Of a DNA stretch of 64,000 nt, positions 1,358-12,579 are shown piece by piece. The number at the start of each line of letters is the position of its first letter. Positions within the stretch are counted from its first letter, which is position 1. The position numbers and the translations under genes were made by a program. The notes beneath the pieces are model-generated. The model ran no database searches. It was given only the letters and a program-made list of their open reading frames with translations, and was not told the origin of the DNA. Source of the stretch: Candidatus Saccharimonadota bacterium (GTDB taxonomy: Bacteria > Patescibacteriota > Saccharimonadia > Saccharimonadales > SZUA-47); assembly GCA_016700315.1 (NCBI GenBank), contig CP065013.1, positions 774,727 through 838,726 on the forward strand, in the 5' to 3' direction.

Positions 1358-1368
1358 AATATGTTATA

Positions 1369-2016
1369 ATGAAACTAATGAAAATACAAGTAATAACATT
1401 ATTCCCGCAGATGTTTGAGGGTGTTTTGGGTCAAAGTATGATGTGGAAGGCTCAAGACAAAGCTAAAGTCGAATTTGAGCTGATAGATCTGAGGCAATTT
1501 GGGTTGGGTCCCCGTCGGCAAGTTGATGATACTCCGTACGGTGGCGGTGACGGCATGCTTCTGATGATCGAGCCGCTGGTTAGAGCTATAGAATTTGCTA
1601 AAGTTAACTCGCCATCGGCCAAAGTAATTTTGCCTACGCCTCGCGGCAAAACCTACAAGCAATCGGACGCCAAGAGGCTAGCAGCAGCATCAAATGATCT
1701 GATAATCGTTTGCCCACGCTACGAAGGCTATGATGAGCGGGTTACTAATTGGGTAGACGAGCAGTTTTGCGTCGGTAATTACGTTCTAACTGGCGGCGAA
1801 TTGCCGGCTATGGTAATTATCGATTCAGTTGTCAGACTCCTGCCAGGTGTGTTGGGCGGCGAAAAAAGTGTTGAGATAGAGTCCTTTCAGGAGGACGATA
1901 AAAAGATCGAGTTTCCCCAGTACACCAGACCCGAAAAGTTCAGGGGCCAAAATGTGCCCAAGGTGCTATTAAACGGGCATCACGCAGAAATTGAAAAGTG
2001 GCGAGCCGAAAACTAA
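1369..2016 (+). CDS. trmD: tRNA (guanine37-N1)-methyltransferase TrmD
   Basis: VITLFPQMFEG, YGGGDGMLLMIEP, VLTGGELPAMVIIDSVVRLLPGVLG SPOUT-knot motifs. Confidence 0.9.
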   Translation: MKLMKIQVITLFPQMFEGVLGQSMMWKAQDKAKVEFELIDLRQFGLGPRRQVDDTPYGGGDGMLLMIEPLVRAIEFAKVNSPSAKVILPTPRGKTYKQSDAKRLAAASNDLIIVCPRYEGYDERVTNWVDEQFCVGNYVLTGGELPAMVIIDSVVRLLPGVLGGEKSVEIESFQEDDKKIEFPQYTRPEKFRGQNVPKVLLNGHHAEIEKWRAEN

Positions 2017-2087
2017 CATTAAACTTGCATGATCTGCATGTAAAGCGTATAATCACGTTTAATAAGTAGTGTATCGGAGGAGATATA

Positions 2088-3113
2088 ATGGGACGTGCTA
2101 GAGCTATAGGTTTAACAGTAGGATTATTTGGTGCTGGAGTTGGTGGGTCGTTGCTAAAAGGGGGAGAGGTTAGCGCACACGTGCCTTTAGTTACTCCGAC
2201 CTGTGACTCTCTGGATATCGATCTATCAAGGTATGAGGATAATGGTACGGGCCAAAACAACATTATCAGAGTTGTTGTAGATGGTACTCTAGTTACGAAC
2301 TCATTATTCGGCAGCAGATATGTCAAATCTATAGAGCTGAATCCCGCACAGAAACATGACTATGAGGTCACAGTAGACGCCAACAGGTTGATTGGCGATC
2401 CTGTAAAATGGGATTTTTCAACTAGCGGTACCACTGAGAAGTGCGTGTCTCCAACCGACCCCACAGAAAGTACCGAAGCTTCAACGACTACATCCACCAC
2501 CGAAGCTCCAACTACGACTACATCTACCACTGAAGCTCCAACTACGACTACATCTACCACTGAAGCTCCAACTACGACTACGTCGACAACTGAAGCCCCA
2601 ACTACGACTACATCTACCACTGAAGCTCCAACTACGACTACGTCGACAACTGAAGCCCCAACTACGACTACTACATCTACCACTGAAGCTCCAACTACGA
2701 CTACATCCACCACTGAGGCTCCTACAACTACCACAACCACCGAAGCTCCAACTACGACTACATCTACCACTGAGGCTCCTACAACTACCACAACCACCGA
2801 AGCTCCAACAACGACTACATCCACCACTGAAGCTCCAACAACGACTACATCCACCACTGAGGCTCCTACAACCACCTCAACCACTGAAGCTCCAACAACG
2901 ACAACTACCGAAGCCCCAACAACGACTTCAGCCACAGAAGCTCCAACAACCACAACAACTTCTGATGTTGTGCACACTACAACCACTGTTAGCGACAGAG
3001 AGACTCCAGGCACCGGTTCAGAACCAGGCGGCGTAGTATTATGGGCCAGTATAATTACTGGTTCAGGGTTAGCGATCTACGGTGCATCGCGTATTAGGAA
3101 AAGGACTGTCTAG
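2088..3113 (+). CDS. Thr-rich mucin-like surface protein with C-terminal hydrophobic anchor plus basic tail
   Basis: About 13 tandem STTEAPTTTTS repeats; C-terminus TPGTGSEPGGVVLWASIITGSGLAIYGASRIRKRTV resembles a cell-wall sorting signal. Confidence 0.7.
   Translation: MGRARAIGLTVGLFGAGVGGSLLKGGEVSAHVPLVTPTCDSLDIDLSRYEDNGTGQNNIIRVVVDGTLVTNSLFGSRYVKSIELNPAQKHDYEVTVDANRLIGDPVKWDFSTSGTTEKCVSPTDPTESTEASTTTSTTEAPTTTTSTTEAPTTTTSTTEAPTTTTSTTEAPTTTTSTTEAPTTTTSTTEAPTTTTTSTTEAPTTTTSTTEAPTTTTTTEAPTTTTSTTEAPTTTTTTEAPTTTTSTTEAPTTTTSTTEAPTTTSTTEAPTTTTTEAPTTTSATEAPTTTTTSDVVHTTTTVSDRETPGTGSEPGGVVLWASIITGSGLAIYGASRIRKRTV
2470..2960. repeat. 33-nt tandem repeat array (about 13-14 copies) encoding TEAPTTTTSTT units
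   Basis: Near-identical repeats accgaagctccaactacgactacatctaccact directly visible. Confidence 0.85.
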
Positions 3114-3718
3114 CTCTTCTTCGGCCTAATCAGCAGCCATAGTACTTCTGCTAAAATCAGGAAGAATACACAGTAAAACCCTACTTCTATGGCAAGCTCT
3201 GCTTTGTAGCCTTCGTTGAAATGCGTATGGAAGTACCACCAAGCGCTAAGTATATATAAGGCAATCGTGCATAGGGTGGTGACAAGTATTGAAAACTTTT
3301 TTAGCAGCAGTGAAGAAACCACAATCGGCAGAGTAAACAATATTACGGCTCTACTCGACATACCGCGCTGAGTGTAAATACTGAAAGTTGCGAGAGCTAG
3401 ATCGGCAGTTATTAGAGCCCAGATAACTCTCCTATGATGGCCGTGATCTCTGTTTGGTTTTGAAGAGTAAAACCAGGCTAAAATGTAGACGCTGGTTACG
3501 ACAAAAAGCGCTAGCCAACGCTGTTTGGCAGCGAAAGGTGTGATTAGATTCCAGGCATCAGAGAGGACGATGTAGACTGCATAAATTAATGCTAGAACTA
3601 TGTGTAGTTTAGCCGCAGGTCTTGAAACAGATTCTAGCCAATGATCGAGTTTTTTTTCGATGACTTTTTGTTTTTTCATTAACCTAATAAGTAAAGCATA
3701 AAACAAGATCCTGCGCAA
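3110..3718 (-). CDS. polytopic membrane protein, unknown function
   Basis: 202-aa ORF with 5-6 hydrophobic helices. Confidence 0.55.
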   Translation of the reverse strand: MRRILFYALLIRLMKKQKVIEKKLDHWLESVSRPAAKLHIVLALIYAVYIVLSDAWNLITPFAAKQRWLALFVVTSVYILAWFYSSKPNRDHGHHRRVIWALITADLALATFSIYTQRGMSSRAVILFTLPIVVSSLLLKKFSILVTTLCTIALYILSAWWYFHTHFNEGYKAELAIEVGFYCVFFLILAEVLWLLIRPKKS

Positions 3719-3753
3719 AAAAGTTCACAGGATCTTGATTGTTATCGTAATTT

Positions 3754-3927
3754 TTAGGCTTCTACGATTTCGGCATCGGCGGAAGCTCGTGCAACAGCCT
3801 CACAGCCTCGCTTGGCACCTGCTTTGTCGGCGTATTCTTCGCCTGTAGCAACTACTTCGCCATTACCGGCTTTTAGACGCCAACGGTAACCGTTTTTACT
3901 TTCATAAATCTCAAATTTTGCTGCCAT
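3754..3927 (-). CDS. YegP/DUF1508 (UPF0339) small protein
   Basis: 57-aa ORF not in track: MAAKFEIYESKNGYRWRLKAGNGEVVATGEEYADKAGAKRGCEAVARASADAEIVEA; FEIY-x-GY-RWRL-A-NGE core typical of YegP. Confidence 0.55.
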   Translation of the reverse strand: MAAKFEIYESKNGYRWRLKAGNGEVVATGEEYADKAGAKRGCEAVARASADAEIVEA

Positions 3928-4051
3928 GTTTAAGTAACCTCCTTAATTTAGTATCTTCATTTTACTCTCTCCGTGGCCTATCGGTCTACGGAAAATGGCT
4001 ATTGTTGACATTAAGACTATAATAAAAGCATAAGACTAAAGGAGAAAAACA

Positions 4052-4576
4052 ATGAAAAAAATAAAACTTATGAGCGCTGCCTTCTGCCTAATAGCCGCAA
4101 GCTTGCTCATGCTAGGGAGTAATTATGCATCCCTCACCGTAAAGGATCAGCTTTCAGCCCAAAAAATATCATTTCCAGATAAGGCAACGTTAGAAAAAGA
4201 CAACTCCAAGCTGGTCTCTTTTGCCGACAAAGCTGTAGATACGGGTGATGAAGCGAAAGCTTATTCGGATTACATCAAAGGCCACTTGGCAAAAGTTGCC
4301 AATGGCAAAACCTATTCGGAGGTAAGCGGCGAGTTTCAAAAAGATCGAACCAACAAAACCCTAGAGGCCCAGAGAACTAATCTTTTCATGGGCGAGACGT
4401 TACGCGGTTTACTACTCAACGCGTGGGGTTGGGGCTTAGTTGGAAAAATTGCTCTATGGGCCTCGTATGCAGTGTTCATAGTTTCGGTTGGACTGTTAGT
4501 GTGGGCAGTAGCCGACAGTGGTACTCGTAAATCGCTGCCAGCCCATACGGTTGCAAAACGAAAAGCCAAAAAGTAG
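4052..4576 (+). CDS. secreted/lipoprotein-like hypothetical protein with C-terminal TM helix
   Basis: N-terminal MKKIKLMSAAFCLIAASLLMLGSNYAS signal-like segment; C-terminal hydrophobic stretch plus KRKAKK. Confidence 0.5.
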   Translation: MKKIKLMSAAFCLIAASLLMLGSNYASLTVKDQLSAQKISFPDKATLEKDNSKLVSFADKAVDTGDEAKAYSDYIKGHLAKVANGKTYSEVSGEFQKDRTNKTLEAQRTNLFMGETLRGLLLNAWGWGLVGKIALWASYAVFIVSVGLLVWAVADSGTRKSLPAHTVAKRKAKK

Positions 4577-4579
4577 TTA

Positions 4580-5188
4580 CTAGGGTCGAAAGCTGCTAGG
4601 CAAGTTGTCGAAGTCAGTCTCGGCGATAATCGCATCCGCTTCTTTGTTCGCTGCAGCTATTTTATGACGCTGCTTTAGGGAATTGAATGCTAAATAAACT
4701 GCCTGGGCGGTGACGCCAATGCCGTCCGCTAGAAAATCTCCTAGCTCCTTATTTTCAGCCTTAGCCTTGTGGCTTGCAAGTAAGTCAGATAGCTTATAGA
4801 GCTCTGGGTGAGATTTGAAACCCCTTGAGGATATGTTATAAAACATTGATGTGGGATCATTGACTGCCAGAATGGTGCGACCGAAACCCTGAAGCTGGGT
4901 GCTGGCTAGCCTTCTGCACTCTGGAAAATCGGCTATTGGAAGGACACTTTGATCTAATGCTAAGCTAGTAATGCCTGATCCAATAACAAACGCATCCCTG
5001 CACTTAGCAACACCAGAAGCAGTATCAAAAAGCGGAAATACCGTCTCAGCGAGCAAAGTACACGCAGCTTTAATTTCTGAGTCAAAAAGATTTTCGATGC
5101 TGCCTACTAATTTCGTAGGATCAGCCAACGCTCTCTCATAGACATTGGACAGAGGGTCTAAAACCAAAGCCTCTGGATAAACAGGCAT
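4580..5188 (-). CDS. hypothetical protein adjacent to the tRNA-Gln island
   Basis: 202-aa ORF, no recognisable motif. Confidence 0.4.
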   Translation of the reverse strand: MPVYPEALVLDPLSNVYERALADPTKLVGSIENLFDSEIKAACTLLAETVFPLFDTASGVAKCRDAFVIGSGITSLALDQSVLPIADFPECRRLASTQLQGFGRTILAVNDPTSMFYNISSRGFKSHPELYKLSDLLASHKAKAENKELGDFLADGIGVTAQAVYLAFNSLKQRHKIAAANKEADAIIAETDFDNLPSSFRP

Positions 5189-5646
5189 GAGAATATCTTA
5201 CAACATTTAGAATAATATTCAATACCCCGGTATTGTTTTAGTCGTAAGTTTTATGATTGGCCGCGTTTTTCGACGCTAGTCAGATTTTAGATTGGACCGA
5301 GTTTTAGGCTATGATATCCTAGTAACACTTGTTTATGCACTAAGCGTGAAAAAGCCCTGAAGATCTTTCTGATGGCAGATCGTAAGAGAACTTTTCAGGT
5401 TCCACATTCGGGTGAGAAGCACCAGCGGTGCTTCGGAAACTCGGAAACAGATTTTGAACTTGTTCAAAGTATGTTGAGAGCGGTGAAGCAATCCTGTGAA
5501 TTGCTGCAAGTGAGTCCACTCTTGAAGATTCATTTTCAAAGAGGTGGCGAAGGGGTCGCAGAATGTGACCGGGACTCGGCTGAAACTTGTTTCACCAAGA
5601 TCGTGACGACAATCCCATTCGAACACCTCGCACCTTTAAGGTATAA

Positions 5647-7263
5647 TCAATCATATATTGGGGATTGGCCAAGCGGTAAGGCAACGGGTTCTGGTCCCGT
5701 GATCGGGGGTTCGAATCCCTCATCCCCAGCCATTTTCGGACTTTTTAAGAATTGGTCGCCCAAATGGGCGGCTTTTTCTTTGGCTGCGCGGAGCGCAAGC
5801 CAGATGTTTTCTTGGGGGGAATTGGAGCTACGGCGCGGCAGAAGCCGCGCTTGTTTTTTAGATAAAAAGAGGTTCAATCCGTCAATTTCAGCAAAAGCGG
5901 CTTTTATGGCAATCGGCTCGGCGTTTGTGGCTATTTTCTTGAGAGAAACAGCCGTTTTGAGCCACTGGCGCATAGGTTCAACCCAACTATTAGCGGCAAG
6001 TGTAAGTTTGGCGATTTGTTCTTCAAGCGACTTCTTTTCACTCATTAGTTCGGCTTGCTTGGTTTTGTATGTCGGCTGGTCAATGTCTTGGTCTAGGTAA
6101 CTGTCCAGAAGTCGCTGTAACTTGCTTTGCAAGTTACGCACCTTTTCTTGTGCTTCGGCTATGAATACGCCAGTGGTTCGCTCGGCTGTTTTCTCGTCCT
6201 CGTTCAGCATTTGCTCAAGCGTAGTTGCCCACGCGCTCGGCAGGGCGTAGCCCTGCAAAATATCGGACAACTGCGCCACAAGCTGTGGTTCGGTTATGGC
6301 TAGTTCAATGCACTTCATTATTTTACTTTTGCGCGTGCAACGGTAATAGGTGTATTCGTGTATATTGCCGTTCTTTTGGTGCTTGACTTTCTTTTCGGCA
6401 GTAATTGCCATATTGCACACGCCGCAAATTAGCAAACCGCATAAGGCTTGTGGCGCGTTCGCGCCTTTTCGCTTGTGCCCGCGCTTTTCGGCTACTGCTT
6501 GCACCGCGTCAAACAGTTTCTTGGACATAATCGGCGTGTGCTTGCCCTCGTACATCTCACCAGCATATCTAAAATGTCCGTAGTAAAACGGATTTGTCAG
6601 CATATATTTGATTTGGTCTTTTTTGAGGGGCAAGCCGCCGCTGGTTTTTATGCCGTTGTCGGCAAAATAGTCGGCAATCTCCTGCAACCCTTTGTCGCCT
6701 TTGCTGTACAGCTCAAAAGCCGATACAACCAGCGGCGCACGCCGTTTATCTACAACAATAGTGCGGGTACGCACATCATTTATGTAGCCGAGCGGTGCAA
6801 GTCCAGGCATTTCACCGCGTCTGACTTTTTGGCGTAGCCCACGCTTGGTGTTCTCGGACAGATTGTCTACATAGTATTTGCTCTGACCAAATGCGATGGA
6901 CAGCATAAACTTGCCCTGTGATGTGTTCTCAAACCAAAATGTCGGAAACTTCAGATTGGTCAGGTGCGTTTGGTCTAGCAAATATACGATTTGTCCGCCG
7001 TCAATGGAATTACGGGCAAGTCTGTCGGGGTGCCACGCGATTATACCGCTGGCTTCGCCAGCCTCAATGCGCTTCAACATCGTGCCGAACTTCGGGCGGC
7101 CTGGTATTTTAGCGGTGCGCTTTTCAATAATGGTATCTACAATATGCAAGCTGTTATCTCTGGCATACTTCCGCAGTTCGGCAATCTGCGCTTCAATACT
7201 TAAAACCTGCTTGTCCTCTACGTCTGTACTCTTGCGAGCGTACAAAAAGTATTTTTCGTTCAT
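5647..7263 (-). CDS. large serine recombinase (phage-integrase/TnpX/CcrAB-type); C-terminus uncertain because the ORF reads through IR-A and the antisense of tRNA-Gln with no stop
   Basis: N-terminal YARKSTDVEDKQVLSIEAQ catalytic Ser motif; recombinase domain; zinc ribbon CGVCNMAITAEKK...YYRC; C-terminal coiled coil. Confidence 0.85.
   Translation of the reverse strand: MNEKYFLYARKSTDVEDKQVLSIEAQIAELRKYARDNSLHIVDTIIEKRTAKIPGRPKFGTMLKRIEAGEASGIIAWHPDRLARNSIDGGQIVYLLDQTHLTNLKFPTFWFENTSQGKFMLSIAFGQSKYYVDNLSENTKRGLRQKVRRGEMPGLAPLGYINDVRTRTIVVDKRRAPLVVSAFELYSKGDKGLQEIADYFADNGIKTSGGLPLKKDQIKYMLTNPFYYGHFRYAGEMYEGKHTPIMSKKLFDAVQAVAEKRGHKRKGANAPQALCGLLICGVCNMAITAEKKVKHQKNGNIHEYTYYRCTRKSKIMKCIELAITEPQLVAQLSDILQGYALPSAWATTLEQMLNEDEKTAERTTGVFIAEAQEKVRNLQSKLQRLLDSYLDQDIDQPTYKTKQAELMSEKKSLEEQIAKLTLAANSWVEPMRQWLKTAVSLKKIATNAEPIAIKAAFAEIDGLNLFLSKKQARLLPRRSSNSPQENIWLALRAAKEKAAHLGDQFLKSPKMAGDEGFEPPITGPEPVALPLGQSPIYD
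5659..5732 (+). tRNA. tRNA-Gln (anticodon CTG)
   Basis: TGGGGAT acceptor; GCCAAGCGGTAAGGCA D-arm; anticodon loop TTCTGGT; GGTTCGAATCC T-arm; 3' end ATCCCCAGCCA; near-identical in layout to E. coli tRNA-Gln. Confidence 0.9.
5728..5863. repeat. IR-A left copy (136 bp), begins with the last 5 nt (AGCCA) of tRNA-Gln
   Basis: 100% identical to the reverse complement of 7414-7548 by direct comparison. Confidence 0.9.
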
Positions 7264-7392
7264 AGTTTACCCCCTAAAACTTAAATGACCGTCCTGGTGC
7301 AACCAACCTAGAAGAACTAGATTGTCCAAGACGGCCATTTAAGCCCTCAAATAAAAATAGTTCTTCACTGGTTGGTTGCTCTTTCATTATAT

Positions 7393-7413
7393 CAAGAAAA
7401 CCGCCTGTGGCGG
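7393..7413 (-). terminator. hairpin CCGCCACAGGCGG followed by TTTTCTT on the minus strand, at the IR-A boundary upstream of the recombinase gene
   Basis: GC stem plus T-run visible on the reverse strand. Confidence 0.35.
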
Positions 7414-7548
7414 TCTAAAAAACAAGCGCGGCTTCTGCCGCGCCGTAGCTCCAATTCCCCCCAAGAAAACATCTGGCTTGCGCTCCGCGCAGCCAAAGAA
7501 AAAGCCGCCCATTTGGGCGACCAATTCTTAAAAAGTCCGAAAATGGCT
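7414..7548. repeat. IR-A right copy (inverted)
   Basis: Reverse complement matches 5728-5863 exactly. Confidence 0.9.
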
Positions 7549-7758
7549 CATTTTTACAACGAGGCTAGAACCTATTTCCAACAAGATGTGTAAATGTAAG
7601 CCCCACCGTTTGCCAGCCAAAGGCTGACCCGCCCCGCCAGCCCTGACTTTTGCATTTTTGATGTTCCCCCCGCCGAATTTCTTCTTTCAGTTGAGAAAAG
7701 TCAGGTCTGTCGGGTCGGCTGCGCTGGAGCGCAGAAACGGCTGGGCTTGGTCGGTGGC
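7545..7758. repeat. IR-B left copy (214 bp), abuts IR-A right copy through a shared TGGC/GCCA core
   Basis: Reverse complement identical to 9320-9534; the two copies produce the identical 67-70 aa ORFs 7565..7777(-) and 9310..9513(+) seen in the track. Confidence 0.9.
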
Positions 7759-7953
7759 ACAACGTACAAAAAACCAAAAAATGCTGGACTTTTCATTGTA
7801 CCTATGCTACAATATATTTTATGAAATTGAGCAACAATTTCTCATCAGTTAAATCACTCGTTGCTCTGCATCTCTTGCACTGGGCTTAGTCCCGAATTGT
7901 CTTAAATTACCATTTGAATCTATATTATTTCTTAAACTTTTAGGAGAAAGACC

Positions 7954-8643
7954 ATGTCCGCCATAGGAATACTTGGCGGTATGGGGCCTCAAGCAAGCAA
8001 TAAGCTGTATGAGCTACTCATTAAGGGTACGCAGAACTATACGCCTGCCGCCGTTGATGATGACTATCCAGAAATTGTCTTGCTGAACGTCCCCGTACCC
8101 AACTTCATATCAGACAAAAGCGAATTGCCAAATGCGAGGCAAATGCTTATCGAACGCACAAAGCTGCTTGAACAAGCAGGCTGTACCGTCAATGGTATCG
8201 CCTGTAATACAGCACACATCTTACTGCCCGAACTGCAAGCAGTAACAAAAGTGCCGTTCTTGGCCATACCCGCGTTAGTGGCAGATAACATTAAGGCCGC
8301 TGGCTACAAGCGAGTAGGCTTGTTGGCTACGCCCACAACCTTAAACTCTACGATATATGACGAGGCTTTAGCCGATGTCGCTGAAATAGTGCGGCCAGAC
8401 ACTACATTTGCAGAGCAAATTGAGCAATACATCTATAAAAAGCTCAATGACAGTTTGACGGAACGTGAAAGGCAGCAATTTAGGCGACAGGTTAAAACAT
8501 TTAAGGAAGCGTACAACCTAGAAACAATTATTCTAGGCTGTACAGAATTGCCGCTAGTATACGGTGCCATTGATAGTGCGGATGTCATCGACACGTTGCA
8601 AGTTCTAGCCGATGAGCTGCTGAAAGAGTATTTTACTCCTTAG
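7954..8643 (+). CDS. aspartate/glutamate racemase family protein (aspartate racemase-like)
   Basis: MSAIGILGGMGPQAS start, NTAHILLPEL and GCTELPLV motifs of the Asp/Glu/hydantoin racemase fold. Confidence 0.8.
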   Translation: MSAIGILGGMGPQASNKLYELLIKGTQNYTPAAVDDDYPEIVLLNVPVPNFISDKSELPNARQMLIERTKLLEQAGCTVNGIACNTAHILLPELQAVTKVPFLAIPALVADNIKAAGYKRVGLLATPTTLNSTIYDEALADVAEIVRPDTTFAEQIEQYIYKKLNDSLTERERQQFRRQVKTFKEAYNLETIILGCTELPLVYGAIDSADVIDTLQVLADELLKEYFTP

Positions 8644-9283
8644 CAAGTTTCTCTTGGCTCGAACCGTTGATGATGTAAACATCACCGTCACGAAAGGTTT
8701 TATGTGGTATGTTGTTGCCCACAACATACTCATATTCCTTTTCGACTGCTTCGGACTCGTGGTGGTTTGAGTGAAAGTGTACGATTGGGTAGAAATCTAT
8801 ATAGCCCAAACCGTCCCATATTTCGCCAGACTCGTAGCCTGCTGCGCTTGCGTCTTTGTCATCGACCAGCTCAACGCCTTTGAGCGATTTTGTGAGTACA
8901 CAGAACGCTGCACTATAACCAGCATAGACCAGTTTGTCGGTTTCTATGAGTTCCCGAAAAACTTTGTCAAAACCACTTTGCTTAAAGGCTTTTGCGAGTA
9001 TAAATACATTTCCACCACTGAACCAAACTAAGTCGTATTGCTCCATTTTTTCAACGATGCCGTCTTTGCCAAAATAGTGGCGTAAATCTAGTTCTTCTGG
9101 CTGATAGCCGAGGCTTTTCATATCTTCAAGTTCTCGTTTGAGGACGATGTCATTTCTGACATCTGGCTCTGTACTATCAAGAGCATTAACGCAAACGGCC
9201 ACTTTTGCCGCTGGCTTACCAACCAGCTCTTTTAGTTTTTCGGTGTGATCTCCGAGGCGATACGATGACATATAGAGTTTCAT
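8633..9283 (-). CDS. peptidase S51 family (peptidase E / alpha-aspartyl dipeptidase-like)
   Basis: LVWFSGGNVFILAKAFKQSGFDKVF...YAGYSAAFCV motifs; start chosen at MKLYMSSY just outside IR-B. Confidence 0.75.
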   Translation of the reverse strand: MKLYMSSYRLGDHTEKLKELVGKPAAKVAVCVNALDSTEPDVRNDIVLKRELEDMKSLGYQPEELDLRHYFGKDGIVEKMEQYDLVWFSGGNVFILAKAFKQSGFDKVFRELIETDKLVYAGYSAAFCVLTKSLKGVELVDDKDASAAGYESGEIWDGLGYIDFYPIVHFHSNHHESEAVEKEYEYVVGNNIPHKTFRDGDVYIINGSSQEKLAKE

Positions 9284-9319
9284 AAGATAAGCATAGCAAA
9301 TCGCTAGGCTTGCAGCTAC

Positions 9320-9534
9320 GCCACCGACCAAGCCCAGCCGTTTCTGCGCTCCAGCGCAGCCGACCCGACAGACCTGACTTTTCTCAACTGAAAGAAGAAA
9401 TTCGGCGGGGGGAACATCAAAAATGCAAAAGTCAGGGCTGGCGGGGCGGGTCAGCCTTTGGCTGGCAAACGGTGGGGCTTACATTTACACATCTTGTTGG
9501 AAATAGGTTCTAGCCTCGTTGTAAAAATGAGCCA
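9320..9534. repeat. IR-B right copy (inverted), ends ...GTAAAAATGAGCCA
   Basis: Exact reverse-complement match to 7545-7758. Confidence 0.9.
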
Positions 9535-10231
9535 AATGCGACAGCAGAATTTCAGACCTAAGTCCCTAATTCTGCTATTACATATGGAAGCATCATTTAA
9601 TATCGTCAGTGCATTCTTCAAAGGCTCTTCAAATCAAGCCAAACTGGCAGCTGGATTGGAGGCAACAAAACACTCAGATAGTGATAGCTTTTTGTATTTA
9701 TCATATGTCATTGCAAGTATTTCTCAATCTGTAGCAGCCTTAGAAGCAGAAGCATTTAATATTATTAACTATGGCATAGGACATACGAAGGGCTCTAACG
9801 GTTACAACTTAGAATCGATTGTTGCCCTACATACAGATGCGGCGAAAATCGATAGGATGCCTATTGTAGATAGATATTCTGTTATTTTGCAAATATTGGG
9901 TAAGGAACCGATGAATTACGATGAAGATATAGTCCGTGATATGCATAATCTCTACAATCTGAGAAATGAAACCACACATTATAAGTCATTTGCCACAAAC
10001 GAAATTATTCCTGAACCTAATAACGATGAAGATTCTGCGTCTAGAGTAAATTTCAAATTACTTGATGATCTAGGCCTTAAGAAATCACATTTTTACGGCA
10101 AAGAGTACGGAGGTGTTCCATTACTGCAATATCTAGGATACGAAACAGCAAAATACTCGAATATCATCGCCAAAAACTTTCTCGTGTATTTTTATAACAA
10201 ATTAGGCGAAGACAATCCATATCTAGATTAA
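9527..10231 (+). CDS. hypothetical protein with C-terminal Rx4H (HEPN-like) motif LRNETTHY; cassette gene
   Basis: Start ATGAGCCAA overlaps the AGCCA core ending IR-B; no other recognisable domain. Confidence 0.5.
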   Translation: MSQMRQQNFRPKSLILLLHMEASFNIVSAFFKGSSNQAKLAAGLEATKHSDSDSFLYLSYVIASISQSVAALEAEAFNIINYGIGHTKGSNGYNLESIVALHTDAAKIDRMPIVDRYSVILQILGKEPMNYDEDIVRDMHNLYNLRNETTHYKSFATNEIIPEPNNDEDSASRVNFKLLDDLGLKKSHFYGKEYGGVPLLQYLGYETAKYSNIIAKNFLVYFYNKLGEDNPYLD

Positions 10232-10237
10232 TGTTCC

Positions 10238-10256
10238 AGACCCATATGCTCAGCCA
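10238..10256 (+). repeat. cassette-boundary repeat AGACCCATATGCTCAGCCA, followed by a decayed duplicate of the 5' end of the preceding gene
   Basis: Same 19-nt element with 2 mismatches at 10802-10820; 10246-10311 encodes MLSQMRQLNIRPMSVIL, versus MSQMRQQNFRPKSLILL at 9527. Confidence 0.6.
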
Positions 10257-10321
10257 GATGCGACAGTTGAATATTAGACCCATGTCAGTTATCCTGTTTT
10301 GCATCAGTTAAGCTAACAATT

Positions 10322-10795
10322 ATGAATAAAATATTGAGATTCAAGGATATTCTTTCAAAGATAAGTGGCGTTAGTACATCAATTGCTGGTGTACAGTGGC
10401 AGACTAGCAAGAGTGAACTTGCATGTGCAAAATCAGTGATTAATTACCTAGAAGATAGACGCGTGCTTTACAATCCCACTGAACTCGAGATGCCACATCA
10501 TTGTCTTAACTCAGTTAACGAAATCATGCATTTTCTTACGTCCGAGATTGATGGGTTGAAGGATCAGAGTAACCTAAAGCTTAATCTCAAGATCATGCGC
10601 GCAGCGTGCCGACGTTTTCTTGATTCTAGCCCAGAACCAGTCAATAGATTCCCAAATAGCTACGACTCATGGGTTTTCTATAGTAATTTAGGAGAGTTGC
10701 GTGGTGTCTTTGGACTTTGTCTCCGTGAGATTGTTCTGAACTTTGAGTTAGCAGTTGAAAATGACCTTGCGATGATAATGCCTGCGGAAGATTAA
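10322..10795 (+). CDS. hypothetical protein, cassette gene
   Basis: 157-aa ORF flanked by the 19-nt AGACCC..GCTCAGCCA repeats. Confidence 0.5.
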   Translation: MNKILRFKDILSKISGVSTSIAGVQWQTSKSELACAKSVINYLEDRRVLYNPTELEMPHHCLNSVNEIMHFLTSEIDGLKDQSNLKLNLKIMRAACRRFLDSSPEPVNRFPNSYDSWVFYSNLGELRGVFGLCLREIVLNFELAVENDLAMIMPAED

Positions 10796-10801
10796 AATAT
10801 T

Positions 10802-10820
10802 AGACCCGTAAGCTCAGCCA
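10802..10820 (+). repeat. cassette-boundary repeat AGACCCGTAAGCTCAGCCA
   Basis: Direct repeat of 10238-10256, 7 nt after the stop codon in both cases. Confidence 0.6.
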
Positions 10821-10828
10821 AGGAAAAT

Positions 10829-10852
10829 CCACCCGTTCATGGGTGGTTTTTT
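10829..10852 (+). terminator. rho-independent terminator
   Basis: CCACCC-GTTCAT-GGGTGG hairpin followed by TTTTTT. Confidence 0.6.
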
Positions 10853-11041
10853 CTTGGCTTGGATCAAAGACACAACAGATTGTGTCTTTGGGGACTCGAA
10901 CAGACACAAACCTTGTTCATTGGCATTCCGCGAACGGTTCGCCGGCGTCGCGAGCCTGAAAAAACAGCAAAGCTACGGAACGCCATTCGCAGACCAATTG
11001 ACGCATTGACTTACCCCCGTTTAGCGTGTGATAATCACTCT

Positions 11042-11590
11042 ATGAAACAGGTTGTTTTTGTAACAGGAAATAAGTGGAAAATATCTGACGCTAAAGCCGC
11101 CCTCACTGCGTATGGTATTACGGTAAGGCCACGCAGCTTAGAGCTAGAAGAGATACAGTCTCACGATCCACACCGTATCGCCATGCACAAAGCGCAGCAA
11201 GCTCACGATGCAATTCAACAACCACTCGTGGTAAACGATGCCTCTTGGTCCTTTCCGGCACTCGGTGGGTTCCCCGGGGGATATATAAAGGACGTCGTAC
11301 AGTGGTTTACTACAGAAGATTTTCTATCACTGCTTAGATTCAAGAAAGACAAGAGTCTAACGATAACAGAAACCGTGACCTATATCGACGGCGATACTAC
11401 CCAGACTTTTTCGCACAAGCTTCAAGGTACTATTATTCTGAGCCCTCGCGGCTCCGGCACAAGCATCGAAACCATCGCTGAATTCTCTGGACATACTTTA
11501 GCTGAACTACATTCACAAAATCTTGAGATTAAGCCAGATGGACCAAGTGCATGGGAAGCGTTTGGTAACTGGTACTCAAAGCAACCATGA
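11042..11590 (+). CDS. non-canonical purine NTP pyrophosphatase (Ham1/RdgB/ITPase family)
   Basis: MKQVVFVTGNKWK N-terminal signature; TTGACT-N17-TGTGATAAT promoter-like element just upstream. Confidence 0.8.
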   Translation: MKQVVFVTGNKWKISDAKAALTAYGITVRPRSLELEEIQSHDPHRIAMHKAQQAHDAIQQPLVVNDASWSFPALGGFPGGYIKDVVQWFTTEDFLSLLRFKKDKSLTITETVTYIDGDTTQTFSHKLQGTIILSPRGSGTSIETIAEFSGHTLAELHSQNLEIKPDGPSAWEAFGNWYSKQP

Positions 11591-11817: not shown

Positions 11818-12579
11818 TTAGCTGTGCATCGGATCCAGATCTATGAGGCTGTATAGCGAATTTTCTTTACCATAGAACCAAGCCCACAACTGATCTCCAT
11901 ACGAGTAGTGCCACCATTCAACCATGCAACTGGCAAGACCAGCCTGGAGCATTGCAGTAAGTAGAATAAGCCTGTTAGATTTTTGCGTGTCAGTCAGCTC
12001 TTCACAAAATAGGTAAGACTTTTCGGTGTCATCGTTTAGCTTGCTACCAAAATCAACCAGCTTTCCTGTCGTGGTATCTATCATGTCTACATCGACTGCA
12101 GCTCCACATACATGGGGCGGTAAAGTGGTTTCGGGATCACTCACAAATTCGCGTGCATGCTCTAATGCTTCTTCATCACTAACTTGCGGGTTATCCTTCT
12201 TGTAATCATCTGCACAGTCAATAAGTATTTTTCTTTGCACATCGATTGGTCGATGGCCTGCACGTAGTACTAGTTTGTATCTACTGTCAAGATGATTTGC
12301 TGCGACAAGCAGCCGCTTTGCAAGTTCGGAACGTAGATAGATGGCATCATATTCTGGATGAAGTGACATGTAATCTCTGTAGCGTTGACCCTCCCAGTCG
12401 TTATCGAGTGTCCAACAAGGTTCAACGAGTAATCTTTCTGCAGATTCAACCCTCACCAAAGAATCTTTTTGATCGCTCGACTGATATTTAGAGAAATCTA
12501 CACTTTCGTTACTGCGAGCTCTGGCTAGTTTTTCTTCTATTGTCATAAGTTCATCATTCACATATATATTGTCACACAA
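11818..12579 (-). CDS. D-Ala-D-Ala dipeptidase, peptidase M15 (VanX/DdpX-like); true start may be the internal MTIEEKL
   Basis: HRPIDVQRK ... HVCGAAVDVDMID zinc-binding motifs typical of VanX. Confidence 0.7.
   Translation of the reverse strand: MCDNIYVNDELMTIEEKLARARSNESVDFSKYQSSDQKDSLVRVESAERLLVEPCWTLDNDWEGQRYRDYMSLHPEYDAIYLRSELAKRLLVAANHLDSRYKLVLRAGHRPIDVQRKILIDCADDYKKDNPQVSDEEALEHAREFVSDPETTLPPHVCGAAVDVDMIDTTTGKLVDFGSKLNDDTEKSYLFCEELTDTQKSNRLILLTAMLQAGLASCMVEWWHYSYGDQLWAWFYGKENSLYSLIDLDPMHS

Follow-up and report, generated by a model that had tools for sequence, protein, structure and literature searches.

In the window, the whole 64,000-nt stretch of Candidatus Saccharimonadota DNA analysed here, a tRNA-Gln gene is followed by an oppositely oriented large serine recombinase (LSR) gene, two cargo genes, two single-gene units and a bidirectional terminator (Table 1). 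Beyond the A arm and the core, the recombinase ORF continues across the entire antisense tRNA; its product matches the structures of the A118 and SPbeta integrases and has more than 8,000 homologues. Read outward from the tRNA, the A arm (family arm profile, E = 9e-30) carries two terminator-like hairpins (5754-5773 and 5832-5851), and its antisense strand codes for the recombinase's conserved last ~45 residues, a tail that is kept in 30 homologues. The inverted copy of the A arm precedes the recombinase start codon by ~150 nt. The P arm combines a conserved structured region with a mimic of the T-loop, AAATAGGTTCTAGCC, located 4 nt farther from the core than in the tRNA.

Table 1. Features of the tRNA-Gln locus (positions in the window)
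Feature	Position	Strand	Evidence
tRNA-Gln(CTG)	5659..5732	+	ARAGORN; Rfam tRNA, 60 bits
Site 1 core AGCCA, attL (tRNA / core / A arm)	5728..5732	+	Empty-site contigs join 5732 to 9530
A arm (P' arm); with core, IR-A 5728-5862	5733..5862	+	135-nt 100% inverted repeat
LSR gene, 538-aa ORF	5647..7263	-	Pfam Resolvase, Recombinase, Zn_ribbon_recom
Inverted copy of A arm + core	7414..7548	-	135-nt repeat; terminators recur on - strand
Site 2 core, intact inverted attP (P arm / AGCCA / A arm)	7544..7548	-	In 36/36 scorable loci
Inverted copy of P arm; with core, IR-B 7544-7758	7549..7758	-	215-nt 100% inverted repeat
Cargo gene 1, Asp/Glu-type amino-acid racemase	7954..8643	+	Pfam PF01177, 1.9e-32; TIGR00035
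Cargo gene 2, peptidase S51 family, start codon uncertain	8633..9283	-	Pfam PF03575, 6e-14
P arm; with core, IR-B' 9320-9534	9320..9529	+	Covarying hairpin; family arm profile E = 1e-12
Site 3 core, attR (P arm / AGCCA / R2)	9530..9534	+	Empty-site contigs
R2, conserved imperfect palindrome, ~60 nt including core	9535..9589	+	nhmmer E = 7e-17; 24 metagenome contigs
E2 gene, 215-aa hypothetical protein	9585..10231	+	Identical 215-aa protein P0121
L2 arm + site 4 core (AGCCA 10252-10256)	10232..10256	+	Sequence; L-type arms recur in other loci
R1, second, more diverged R palindrome copy	10257..10312	+	nhmmer E = 3e-14
E1 gene, DUF6650 protein, 157 aa	10322..10795	+	Pfam PF20355
L1 arm + site 5 core (AGCCA 10816-10820)	10796..10820	+	78% match to L2 arm region; AGACCCRTAWGCTCAGCCA repeat
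Native bidirectional terminator of tRNA-Gln locus	10829..10856	+	Terminator prediction

An earlier note on this DNA had pointed out that AGCCA recurs at five segment junctions, and we confirm all five, with site 2 at 7544-7548 (-). The pentamer by itself proves nothing, as it occurs 193 times in the window against 138 ± 11 expected, or ~1 per 330 nt over both strands; the evidence lies in the flanking sequence. The 135-nt and 215-nt perfect inverted repeats overlap by exactly the 5-nt core. Downstream, 9530-9574 is 76% identical to 10252-10296 over 45 nt and 10225-10256 is 78% identical to 10789-10820 over 32 nt. When all 18,528 AGCCA site pairs in the window were scored, the right flanks of 9530/10252 (19/25) ranked joint best outside the perfect repeats, tied with the self-complementary terminator pair 10816/10855, and the left flanks of 10252/10816 (13/20) were among the top three. 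In addition, AGACCCRTAWGCTCAGCCA occurs just twice against 0.03 expected. The note was right to propose that recombination formed the junctions at all five AGCCA sites.

The 3,797 bp at 5733-9529 form a separate mobile element with a precise insertion. Three independent metagenome contigs (L081, L082 and L083), each from its own assembly and matching the window at 99.3-99.7% identity, join tRNA-Gln 5732 directly to 9530, all reading ...CCCTCATCCCC AGCCA AATGCGACAG..., and retain both downstream units as well as the Ham1 gene. This empty site in near-identical genomes supports the earlier proposal of an LSR element at the tRNA-Gln 3′ end. The 3′ half of tRNA-Gln is the chromosomal (B) half-site, and the site 1 core is made up of the last acceptor-stem base, the discriminator and CCA. 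A further independent metagenome contig (L001) exactly matches 5498-7758 and ends precisely at 7758. For the window element we saw neither a circular junction nor an excision product nor an inversion polymorphism, and we infer its mobility from its presence/absence and from its relatives.

The layout with a spare inverted attachment site is common to hundreds of relatives across the tiny-genome Patescibacteria, and no description of it was found in the literature searched. At least 577 genomic matches, all from MAG or metagenome sequence, fall into several Patescibacteria lineages; the LSRs use more than 12 tRNA identities, and in 65 of 79 LSR copies residue 470 is followed, at a distance of ~120 nt, by an antisense tRNA. 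It is a family trait that the LSR reading frame extends into this tRNA. A chain search gave 38 loci. With L011 and L071, where other repeats were paired, and the window left out, the 36 related loci that remain, those with enough flank and a scorable layout, all have two abutting inverted-repeat pairs with a common 3-10-nt core. The LSR segment measures ~1,530-1,690 nt in 35 of them and 2,054 nt in L009. In all ~34 loci read, the distance between core and GTTC motif is exactly 4 nt greater in the P arm than in the tRNA (the script gave +4 in 18, and values of -7 and +9 arising from a second regex match were corrected by eye), so that the resemblance of the IR-B end to the tRNA T-arm, which the earlier note had called faint, is real and holds family-wide. 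In most family loci site 3 adjoins a terminator with no cassette array. Family members carry genes of accessory metabolism as cargo, and this cargo lacks any genes for replication, transfer or directionality. In one locus (L075) the LSR segment is flanked by two convergent tRNAs.

Mis-joining of contigs at an invertible or repeated region could also give repeats that are 100% identical and whose edges are break points of many short-read contigs. Such an artefact is extremely improbable and effectively refuted by the family-wide conservation: the layout was assembled independently in the 36 related loci, among them those on the complete chromosomes CP064994 and CP060229, divergence has brought some repeat pairs down to 92-98% identity, and a second assembly exactly reproduces the junctions. 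On the evidence of the arm sequences the repeat arms evolve in concert; between the window and L009 the A arms match at 89%, but within each element they are 100% identical, an identity that ordinary gene conversion could maintain with no site-specific function. Cargo has been swapped between divergent elements, whose LSRs are just 61-62% identical.

We propose that the element entered by LSR-type recombination between its own P arm/AGCCA/A arm and the chromosomal tRNA 3′ half/AGCCA/R, yielding site 1 as attL and site 3 as attR. The hybrid arms of sites 1-3, which the earlier note read as footprints of serial events, are instead attL, attR and a built-in inverted copy of attP that is present in every family member. 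The LSR probably recognizes the universal T-loop GGTTCGA of tRNA genes, a motif that the P arm bears as well, 4 nt farther from the crossover, and the two or three bases preceding CCA probably set the choice of tRNA. After insertion the A arm provides the tRNA with its CCA and with two terminators, and the LSR gene is convergent with the tRNA gene, reading into it. The hallmark of the family is the complete inverted attP retained at site 2 between the LSR gene and the cargo, which accounts for both perfect inverted repeats, the one of 135 nt and the one of 215 nt. Its most likely role is that of a partner site that needs no directionality factor. In the integrated element site 2 would also be the only site still able to react with a tRNA target. 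Recombination of site 2 with the tRNA-side site could flip the LSR segment. The textbook rule for canonical large serine integrases allows recombination of attP with attB alone, and inversion between attL and the internal attP would break it.

Flipped isomers of the LSR segment do occur (L123 and L071), and in ~15 of 120 homologue clusters the LSR reads into a P arm and not a tRNA. Together with two neighbouring segments that are each bounded by perfect inverted repeats with a common core, this would suit a shufflon-like system in which the LSR is mainly an invertase that flips both segments as an expression switch. We regard such phase variation as quite improbable. Both window cargo genes lie entirely within their own segment, each with its own upstream sequence, so inversion should not alter them. 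The LSR orientation is strongly skewed among relatives (65 canonical vs 1-2 flipped) and the cargo orientation is alike in 8 of 9 homologous pairs, so frequent flipping is not supported. The window element is a presence/absence polymorphism, and many different tRNAs are occupied, unlike an invertase locus. The P-arm tails stem in part from tandem arrays and not from flips, as in L121, a tandem chain of family elements.

The window LSR has the same domain set as the large serine integrases (A118/LI, SPbeta SprA, Bxb1, phiC31), and the A118 integrase structure 4KIS aligns with its recombinase/zinc-ribbon region. These integrases likewise use short sites with just 3-10 nt in common and one recognition motif that is offset between donor and target half-sites, by ~5 bp in the published systems and by 4 nt in the family. 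Unlike them, the family has no directionality-factor gene that we could see, its LSR gene crosses the crossover into the target, its target is the T-loop-to-CCA end of many tRNAs, it keeps an intact inverted attP within the integrated element, and it is essentially absent from viral contigs. The best curated match of the window LSR is CcrB of the SCC elements of staphylococci and enterococci (E = 2.7e-37), although its score of 129 bits is far under the family cut-off of 900 bits. SCC elements too are small cargo islands that adjoin a conserved gene at its 3′ end. They occur in composite or tandem arrays together with partners that lack a recombinase, and they operate without a separate directionality factor; their target is rlmH rather than a tRNA, they use a CcrA/CcrB pair rather than one recombinase, and they have no internal inverted attachment site. 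The tycheposons of Prochlorococcus are also site-specific at tRNA genes, carry adaptive cargo in streamlined genomes and occur in populations mixed for presence and tandem junctions, a minority of them with a large serine recombinase. In contrast to the family, most have tyrosine recombinases and many have replication genes, and the double inverted-repeat layout is not described in the tycheposon paper. If the element excises, its hypothetical circle would carry two identical inverted recombination sites, as in the yeast 2-micron plasmid and other flip systems, and these would divide it into a recombinase and a cargo segment. Unlike the 2-micron system, no such circle was observed, there is no replication origin or copy-number role, and the recombinase class differs, Flp being a tyrosine recombinase.

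Beyond site 3, R2 is the native sequence after tRNA-Gln in the window's lineage. It overlaps the E2 gene start, 88% of its palindrome stem positions are paired, and the R palindrome is found before at least six unrelated genes elsewhere. Where the earlier note saw a duplicate of the first 20 codons, the repeat is real, but it is the non-coding palindrome R, with the gene starting only at 9585. The E2 protein has no family match, and its relatives (45-86% identity) all sit beside a tRNA-Gln 3′ end. The L2 arm and its core, GTTCCAGACCCATATGCTCAGCCA, give an ungapped alignment with the final 24 nt of tRNA-Gln (17/24). L-type arms lie 4-19 nt past the stop codon in 7/7 E2- and E1-type loci; in the window, the 19-nt element follows the stop codon after 6 nt, not the 7 nt given earlier. 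E2 occurs without the other unit in L084, L085, L087 and L088, E1 is alone or first in L090-94 and in L095 (an 87% homologue as first unit after the tRNA end), and other genes are bracketed by R and L-type ends in L097, L099, L109 and L110. Since the units are found singly, in either position and with other genes elsewhere, they behave as cassettes, and the modularity claimed for them stands: related genomes carry one or the other, or different genes, between the same end sequences, and unit number and identity differ between genomes. Units 9535-10256 and 10257-10820 predate the LSR element, without which they also occur.

We consider it likely that the tRNA-Gln CCA end is a layered insertion hotspot that holds the LSR element and two older modular cassettes. 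Its first layer belongs to a large family of minimal integrative elements that spans the Patescibacteria, with one LSR and one to six accessory genes per element. The second layer (9535-10820) consists of two older single-gene units without a recombinase, each with an R palindrome at its start and a tRNA-end-like L arm plus AGCCA at its end.

Alternatively, all five sites could be substrates of one LSR that captures, orders and shuffles single-gene cassettes after tRNA-Gln. AGCCA is common to all junctions, with the cut at the identical point of the tRNA end, and the cassette content varies as described; family LSR elements are inserted beside R in three lineages (the window, L117 and L118) and form tandem chains (L121), and the GTTC..AG motif of the L arm resembles the P-arm motif. 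We nevertheless find this integron-like reading unlikely. Cassettes occur in genomes without an LSR element at tRNA-Gln, E2 holds the tRNA-Gln position in lineages as far apart as 45% protein identity, the family two-arm profiles do not detect the cassette ends, and R/L cassettes are present in 0/78 genome loci. Because the spacing of the left arm is target-type and not donor-type, L/AGCCA/R looks like attB and not attP, and under the usual LSR rule the LSR should not mobilize the cassettes. Integron arrays likewise consist of single, mostly promoterless genes with a conserved, partly palindromic ~60-90-nt junction and vary in unit number and order beside one fixed site. Unlike integrons, the window cassettes lack both an IntI tyrosine recombinase and attC core sites, their crossover is at the tRNA CCA end, at most two units are seen and no integrase is linked to them. 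No integron integrase, attC or sign of ongoing shuffling was found at the tRNA-Gln locus, and of the tRNA-anchored cassette system proposed earlier the modular units hold, whereas its integron-like nature and its being driven by the present LSR are unproven.

The repeats at sites 3-5 could also act at the RNA level rather than in recombination, with R as a 5′ leader hairpin and L plus AGCCA as a mimic of the tRNA end that punctuates a tRNA-mRNA co-transcript, the genes being replaced by homologous recombination after natural transformation. R begins at the tRNA's CCA and extends over the E2 start codon, both R and L are conserved far above neutral expectation, L aligns with the tRNA 3′ end, and the units have no accompanying recombinase. 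Even so, we assign this explanation a low probability, as R shows almost no covariation and no Rfam match, each gene of the two-unit array has its own copy of R and L, the same unit takes the first place in one genome and the second place in another, and unrelated element insertions all break at the same AGCCA.

The recombinase beside tRNA-Gln belongs to a very large family whose elements insert at tRNA ends, keep a conserved layout of two inverted repeats and are spread over several lineages of Patescibacteria, a result that goes beyond the original claim, and its element adjoins a second, recombinase-less cassette system at the same tRNA gene. The earlier note had placed AGCCA at five junctions downstream of this tRNA, and the pentamer is present at all five of these places (sites 1–5, see table). 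The window contains 193 copies of AGCCA, a common pentamer, so the informative part is its flanks. Two perfect inverted repeats overlap by exactly the 5-nt core, and sites 1–3 are three sites made from four arms: the tRNA, the arm that joins the core at the tRNA side of the element (A arm), the element's other arm (P arm) and the palindrome R2. The 19-nt left arm common to sites 4 and 5 occurs twice in the window against 0.03 expected occurrences, sites 3 and 4 have a right arm of 45 nt in common (76% identity), and the shared flanks of sites 3–5 lie in the extreme tail of the 18,528 AGCCA-site pairs in the window. The observation is confirmed, and its interpretation is supported in part, namely for insertion at the tRNA end and for modular cassettes.

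Features at the tRNA-Gln hotspot (window positions) and contigs carrying the empty site
Feature	Position or accession	Strand	Description
tRNA-Gln(CTG)	5659–5732		intact
Large serine recombinase (LSR) gene	7263 to 5647	minus	538 aa; resolvase, recombinase and zinc-ribbon domains
Inverted repeat, 135 nt, perfect	5728–5862 / 7414–7548		
Inverted repeat, 215 nt, perfect	7544–7758 / 9320–9534		
Site 1	5728		tRNA + AGCCA + A arm
Site 2 (inverted)	7544	minus	P arm + AGCCA + A arm
Site 3	9530		P arm + AGCCA + R2
Site 4	10252		
Site 5	10816		
Cargo between P-arm copies			amino-acid racemase gene and peptidase S51 gene
Structured P-arm module	9350–9504		
R palindromes (R2, R1)	9530–9589, 10251–10312		
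E2 unit, first downstream	9535–10256		215-aa hypothetical protein
E1 unit, second downstream	10257–10820		DUF6650 protein
Bidirectional terminator, third downstream			
Empty-site contig L081	JGI 3300045332		
Empty-site contig L083	JGI 3300045333		
Empty-site contig L082	SRR5381731		

A search for relatives of the E2 protein returned three contigs from independent assemblies, 99.3–99.7% identical to the window, in which tRNA-Gln (5732) is joined straight to 9530; the two cassettes and the gene after them are kept. The LSR element at 5733–9529 (3,797 bp) is thus a presence/absence segment with its limits exactly at the cores, and the E2 and E1 units, being retained in the empty-site contigs, are older than the element. 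A fourth contig from another assembly matches 5498–7758 base for base and ends at the edge of the 215-nt repeat. Site 1 is attL, site 3 is attR, and the empty target consists of tRNA-Gln, AGCCA and AATGCGACAG. It is shown that the element enters site-specifically, at the CCA end of the tRNA gene, and substitutes its own CCA and terminator for those of the tRNA.

The LSR has a resolvase catalytic domain at its N terminus and, after it, recombinase and zinc-ribbon domains that bind DNA (PF00239, 1.3e-21; PF07508, 4.7e-17; PF13408, 3.1e-6), and matches the A118 and SPbeta integrase structures, with residues 216–452 aligning to the A118 integrase (4KIS). Serine integrases cleave both strands in concert with a 2-bp overhang and recombine attP with attB only unless a directionality factor is present. 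They also recognise the same motif at different distances from the crossover in donor and target, a feature that the LSR family shares. All testable serine-integrase features are found in the enzyme, which places it in the large serine integrase family. Its reading frame is stop-free through the A arm, the core and the entire antisense tRNA. Two terminator-like hairpins in the A arm point away from the tRNA, and with the inverted A-arm copy the same two also separate the LSR promoter region from the cargo. The idea that the P arm or the inverted A arm encodes a small protein or a directionality factor was rejected because the longest ORFs vary in strand and frame among loci; the window ORF at 7372–7593 has a TTG start only and, by eye, no obvious ribosome-binding site. 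PADLOC returned no matches to defence-system cargo.

Homologues of the LSR form >8,000 clusters at 65–91% identity, with at least 577 genomic matches, in Saccharibacteria and in metagenome-assembled genomes labelled Nomura-, Morani- and Paceibacteria, Gottesman-, Woese- and Shapirobacteria, among others; hundreds of genomes have the family, often in several copies. A phage origin is rejected: a viral collection gave a single match (41% identity), and hardly any viral contigs carry the family. In 65 of 79 LSR copies an antisense tRNA gene is found ~120 nt beyond residue 470, the targets including tRNAs for Gln, Asn, Ser, Leu, Arg, Gly, Lys, Thr, His, Cys, Val, Ile and Tyr, and the near-universal G-F-E-P of LSR tails arises because the antisense T-loop is translated.

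A search for two abutting repeat pairs gave 38 loci. Leaving out L011 and L071, where other repeats had been paired, and the window itself, the layout of the window is present in all 36 remaining related loci, two of them on complete chromosomes. The A-arm pair (~56–157 nt) encloses an LSR segment of ~1,530–1,690 nt in 35 of the 36 (2,054 nt in the related locus L009), the P-arm pair (69–286 nt) encloses 0.9–8 kb of cargo, and the two pairs overlap in a 3–10-nt core that is the tRNA 3′ end. The right flank of site 3 is in most loci a terminator hairpin, the native post-tRNA sequence. Given this layout in every locus, the intact inverted attP at site 2 is a part of the design and neither debris of serial events nor an assembly error, and the earlier reading of the hybrid arms as the footprint of serial recombination is not upheld.

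The P arm follows the family consensus (A/G)AAATAGGTTC(G/T)AGC, ~8 nt, GTA.AA and core, and mimics the tRNA T-loop GGTTCGA. The distance of GTTC from the core is 23 nt for the P arm versus 19 nt for the tRNA (22 versus 18 in a few loci), exactly 4 nt more in all ~34 loci read (18 scored as +4 by script, the others by eye after a second regex match). Serine integrases, according to work on the A118/LI integrase, tell their sites apart by an offset of ~5 bp between the half-sites of donor and target. As in those enzymes, identity shared by the three sites is confined to the core in the 36 loci. The core of site 3 has mismatches to sites 1 and 2 in four of the related loci (L012, L029, L067 and L069), which places the crossover at the CCA or just before it. 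The LSR therefore seems to recognise something that every tRNA gene has, and the short core would choose the tRNA that is used. The outer P arm is a conserved structured region with a hairpin that has compensatory changes in 7 of 11 pairs. This module, also found in the P arms of ~20 related loci (alignment A4), has the order ...TCGGCGGGGGAAA...TTTTTCTGGCGGGGCG, hairpin, AGGCGGCGGGGCTGAGC, and may represent a small RNA, or else a DNA structure with an accessory role. A search of Rfam gave no match for R or the P arm, the tRNA being the sole match.

Across the family the internal attP is kept, the arms are homogenised, the cargo turns over, and both orientations as well as tandem chains exist. 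The cargo is accessory metabolism, with six NUDIX hydrolases, methyltransferases and short-chain dehydrogenases, besides inositol monophosphatase, alanine racemase and leucyl-tRNA synthetase, and the family cargo screened held no replication, transfer or directionality genes. Related cargo (75–88% protein identity) travels with LSRs that are 61–62% identical and sit at different tRNAs, and an LSR pair 92.6% identical carries different cargo. In the related locus L123 the tRNA lies upstream of the LSR gene, which reads into the P arm, making it a true flipped isomer; L071 is similar. Of 120 homologue clusters, about 15 have the terminal motif ...FYN.ARTYF, the ending of an LSR frame that reads into a P arm, and 86 read into a tRNA. 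LSR orientation is canonical in 65 cases versus flipped in 1–2, and frequent flipping is supported neither by this nor by cargo orientation.

The tandem chain is found in L121 (JGI Ga0268731_1000100, 1367–10340), where two family elements at tRNA-Gly are arranged as P+c+A – LSR – A′+c′+P – cargo – P+c+A – LSR – A′+c′+tRNA; the tRNA-adjacent LSR seems to be degraded, and a DNA methyltransferase and a ResIII helicase make up the cargo. This array and the flipped isomers hint that partner choice may be relaxed relative to the attP × attB rule. In L075, a complete chromosome (CP060229.1, 8420–11580), the LSR segment lies between two convergent tRNAs, both joined to A arms, which fits the product expected of the internal attP recombining with a second tRNA gene, or of cassette exchange. 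In L063 (CAYGTP010000021.1, 2652–12530) a relative of the LSR (56% identity) has its own flanking inverted repeat without a tRNA and is surrounded by at least seven direct copies of GGGCGACGTCGTGGAGGACGTTCGAACTGTG, 0.9–1.7 kb apart, an arrangement that may reflect another target or a cassette array of greater length. In L007 (11524–14524) a 2.7-kb restriction-modification module lies between an LSR element and tRNA-Leu; on both sides it is bordered by a 29-nt copy of the 3′ end of the tRNA, in direct orientation, so a different kind of element uses the same hotspot.

The A arms of the window and of L009 are 89% identical to one another and 100% identical within each element, and arm copies in a few elements have drifted to 92–98%; the arms evolve in concert. 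A switch that flips the LSR segment is a tentative idea that we hold to be possible rather than probable. The tandem chain suggests that tRNA+core+A would still be usable as a target. In that case site 1 could recombine with the inverted attP inside the element and so flip the LSR segment, which would leave both site types unchanged and would require no directionality factor. The LSR gene, as it is usually oriented, runs head-on into a highly expressed tRNA gene, to which it is antisense; this collision could silence it, selection would explain the 65-to-1–2 bias, and flipping would release the gene. The sober alternative is ordinary gene conversion between arm copies that are functionally required. 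More broadly, we think it unlikely, though worth stating, that the family is, in all of the following parts, an undescribed kind of gene shuttle for the ultra-small genomes of Patescibacteria. Its LSR would read the universal tRNA T-loop, a change in a few pre-CCA bases of its own site would target a new tRNA, the second, inverted attP would permit reversible self-inversion, chaining and cargo exchange without a directionality factor, and the units at tRNA-Gln, attB-like in their ends, would be natural capture substrates.

An integron has an IntI tyrosine recombinase beside attI, whereas the recombinase at 5300–11100 is of the serine type only; attC carries paired cores 3′ of the cassette, whereas here the junction is L+AGCCA+R, L being the 3′ arm of a unit, with the palindrome 5′ of the gene, and no GTTRRRY-type cores occur in the sequence. 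Without tyrosine integrase and attC the locus is not an integron. SCC elements insert through CcrA/B or CcrC at rlmH (orfX), whereas the window element targets a tRNA gene, and at 128.7 bits against a CcrB cut-off of 900 the LSR is not a Ccr recombinase. A tRNA island in the classical, Islander sense has a tyrosine integrase, a restored tRNA and a displaced tRNA fragment at the far end; here the tRNA is likewise intact, but the recombinase is of the serine type and the LSR element duplicates the 5-nt core only. In serine-invertase and shufflon systems a dedicated invertase flips segments between short inverted sites and thereby changes expression; inverted sites exist here and relatives have flipped isomers, no expression effect is evident, and orientation is strongly biased. 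SCC composite islands and Prochlorococcus tycheposons are the closest functional parallels, but an internal inverted attachment site, present in the LSR element, is undescribed for either. The literature searched, covering a part of the journals, holds no account of the LSR family or its layout, and an earlier description is possible.

Few mobile elements have been described in Patescibacteria, and gene exchange among their roughly 1-Mb genomes is poorly understood. The LSR family is an abundant carrier of accessory metabolic genes that are swapped between elements, and its layout raises the questions of what an intact inverted attP does inside an integrated element and whether such a recombinase can act without a directionality factor. 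Closely related integrases that appear to read the T-loop and differ mainly in a short core are attractive as genome-engineering tools, and the LSRs are possible genetic handles for organisms that are hard to manipulate.

The cassettes at tRNA-Gln point to another module system without a recombinase at the same hotspot. Homologues of E2 at 86%, 74%, 48% and 45% protein identity all lie directly after the tRNA-Gln 3′ end or an orphan copy of it, and their units end 4–19 nt after the stop with (C/T)(C/T)AGAC(C/T)....(A/G)C(T/C)C AGCCA and then a terminator. E1 homologues are found alone, and in the related locus L095 the unit next to the tRNA is E1; an exact look-up of the E1 DUF6650 protein found no record. 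Scanning metagenomes with the right-arm pattern gave 24 contigs, all genuine (L097–L120). R is a conserved ~60-nt imperfect palindrome, always preceded by CAGCCA in these contigs, with 88% of stem positions paired versus 32–49% in slid controls and negligible covariation (RNAalifold gave a 3-pair stem only; the long stem was tested explicitly). To its left lies a genuine tRNA-Gln, an arm of the L type, the P arm of an LSR element (L117 and L118) or an orphan tRNA end. To its right no fewer than six genes or gene sets, unrelated to one another, occur, several of them closed by an L arm. Such varied content between R and L-type ends means that the units behave as modular cassettes. To that extent the proposal of cassettes at one hotspot stands. 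Arrays have one or two units, none longer than two having been found, and R and L-type ends bracket at least six different gene contents. R sequence is conserved far beyond the genes that follow it.

L2, the 3′ arm of E2, aligns to the last 24 nt of tRNA-Gln without gaps (17/24), so its GTTC spacing is that of the tRNA and not that of the P arm; in this the cassette L arms resemble the displaced tRNA fragment of classical tRNA islands. The cassette junction looks like a target-type rather than a donor-type site. Profiles of the family arms did not detect the cassette ends, and none of 78 genome loci has cassettes. That R1 and R2 might be decayed A arms was suggested by their antisense translation, which resembles an LSR tail, and was rejected because the profiles match true arms only and R is separately conserved. 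A crossover at AGACC instead of AGCCA was likewise rejected, since a 39-nt segment would then be orphaned and the dyad-symmetry test is failed.

AGACCYRT occurs in direct orientation in both the R loop and the L arm (10271–10284 and 10796–10809; also 9554 and 10238), and E1 is bracketed by AATATTAGACCC(A/G)T, which fits none of the models considered. In the related locus L087 (5780–6110) the 5′ half of tRNA-Gln occurs three times in tandem, and in L088 (3455–5951) orphan tRNA-Gln 3′ ends (CCCTCATCCCCAGCCA) lie between further islands. A 341-aa ORF at 2088–3113, with ~20 tandem TTEAPTTTTS repeats and then a C-terminal hydrophobic stretch, looks like a surface protein. Just outside the hotspot (11818–12579) lies a gene for a D-Ala-D-Ala dipeptidase (peptidase M15), which with the racemase and S51 cargo makes a cluster of cell-wall or peptide metabolism genes.
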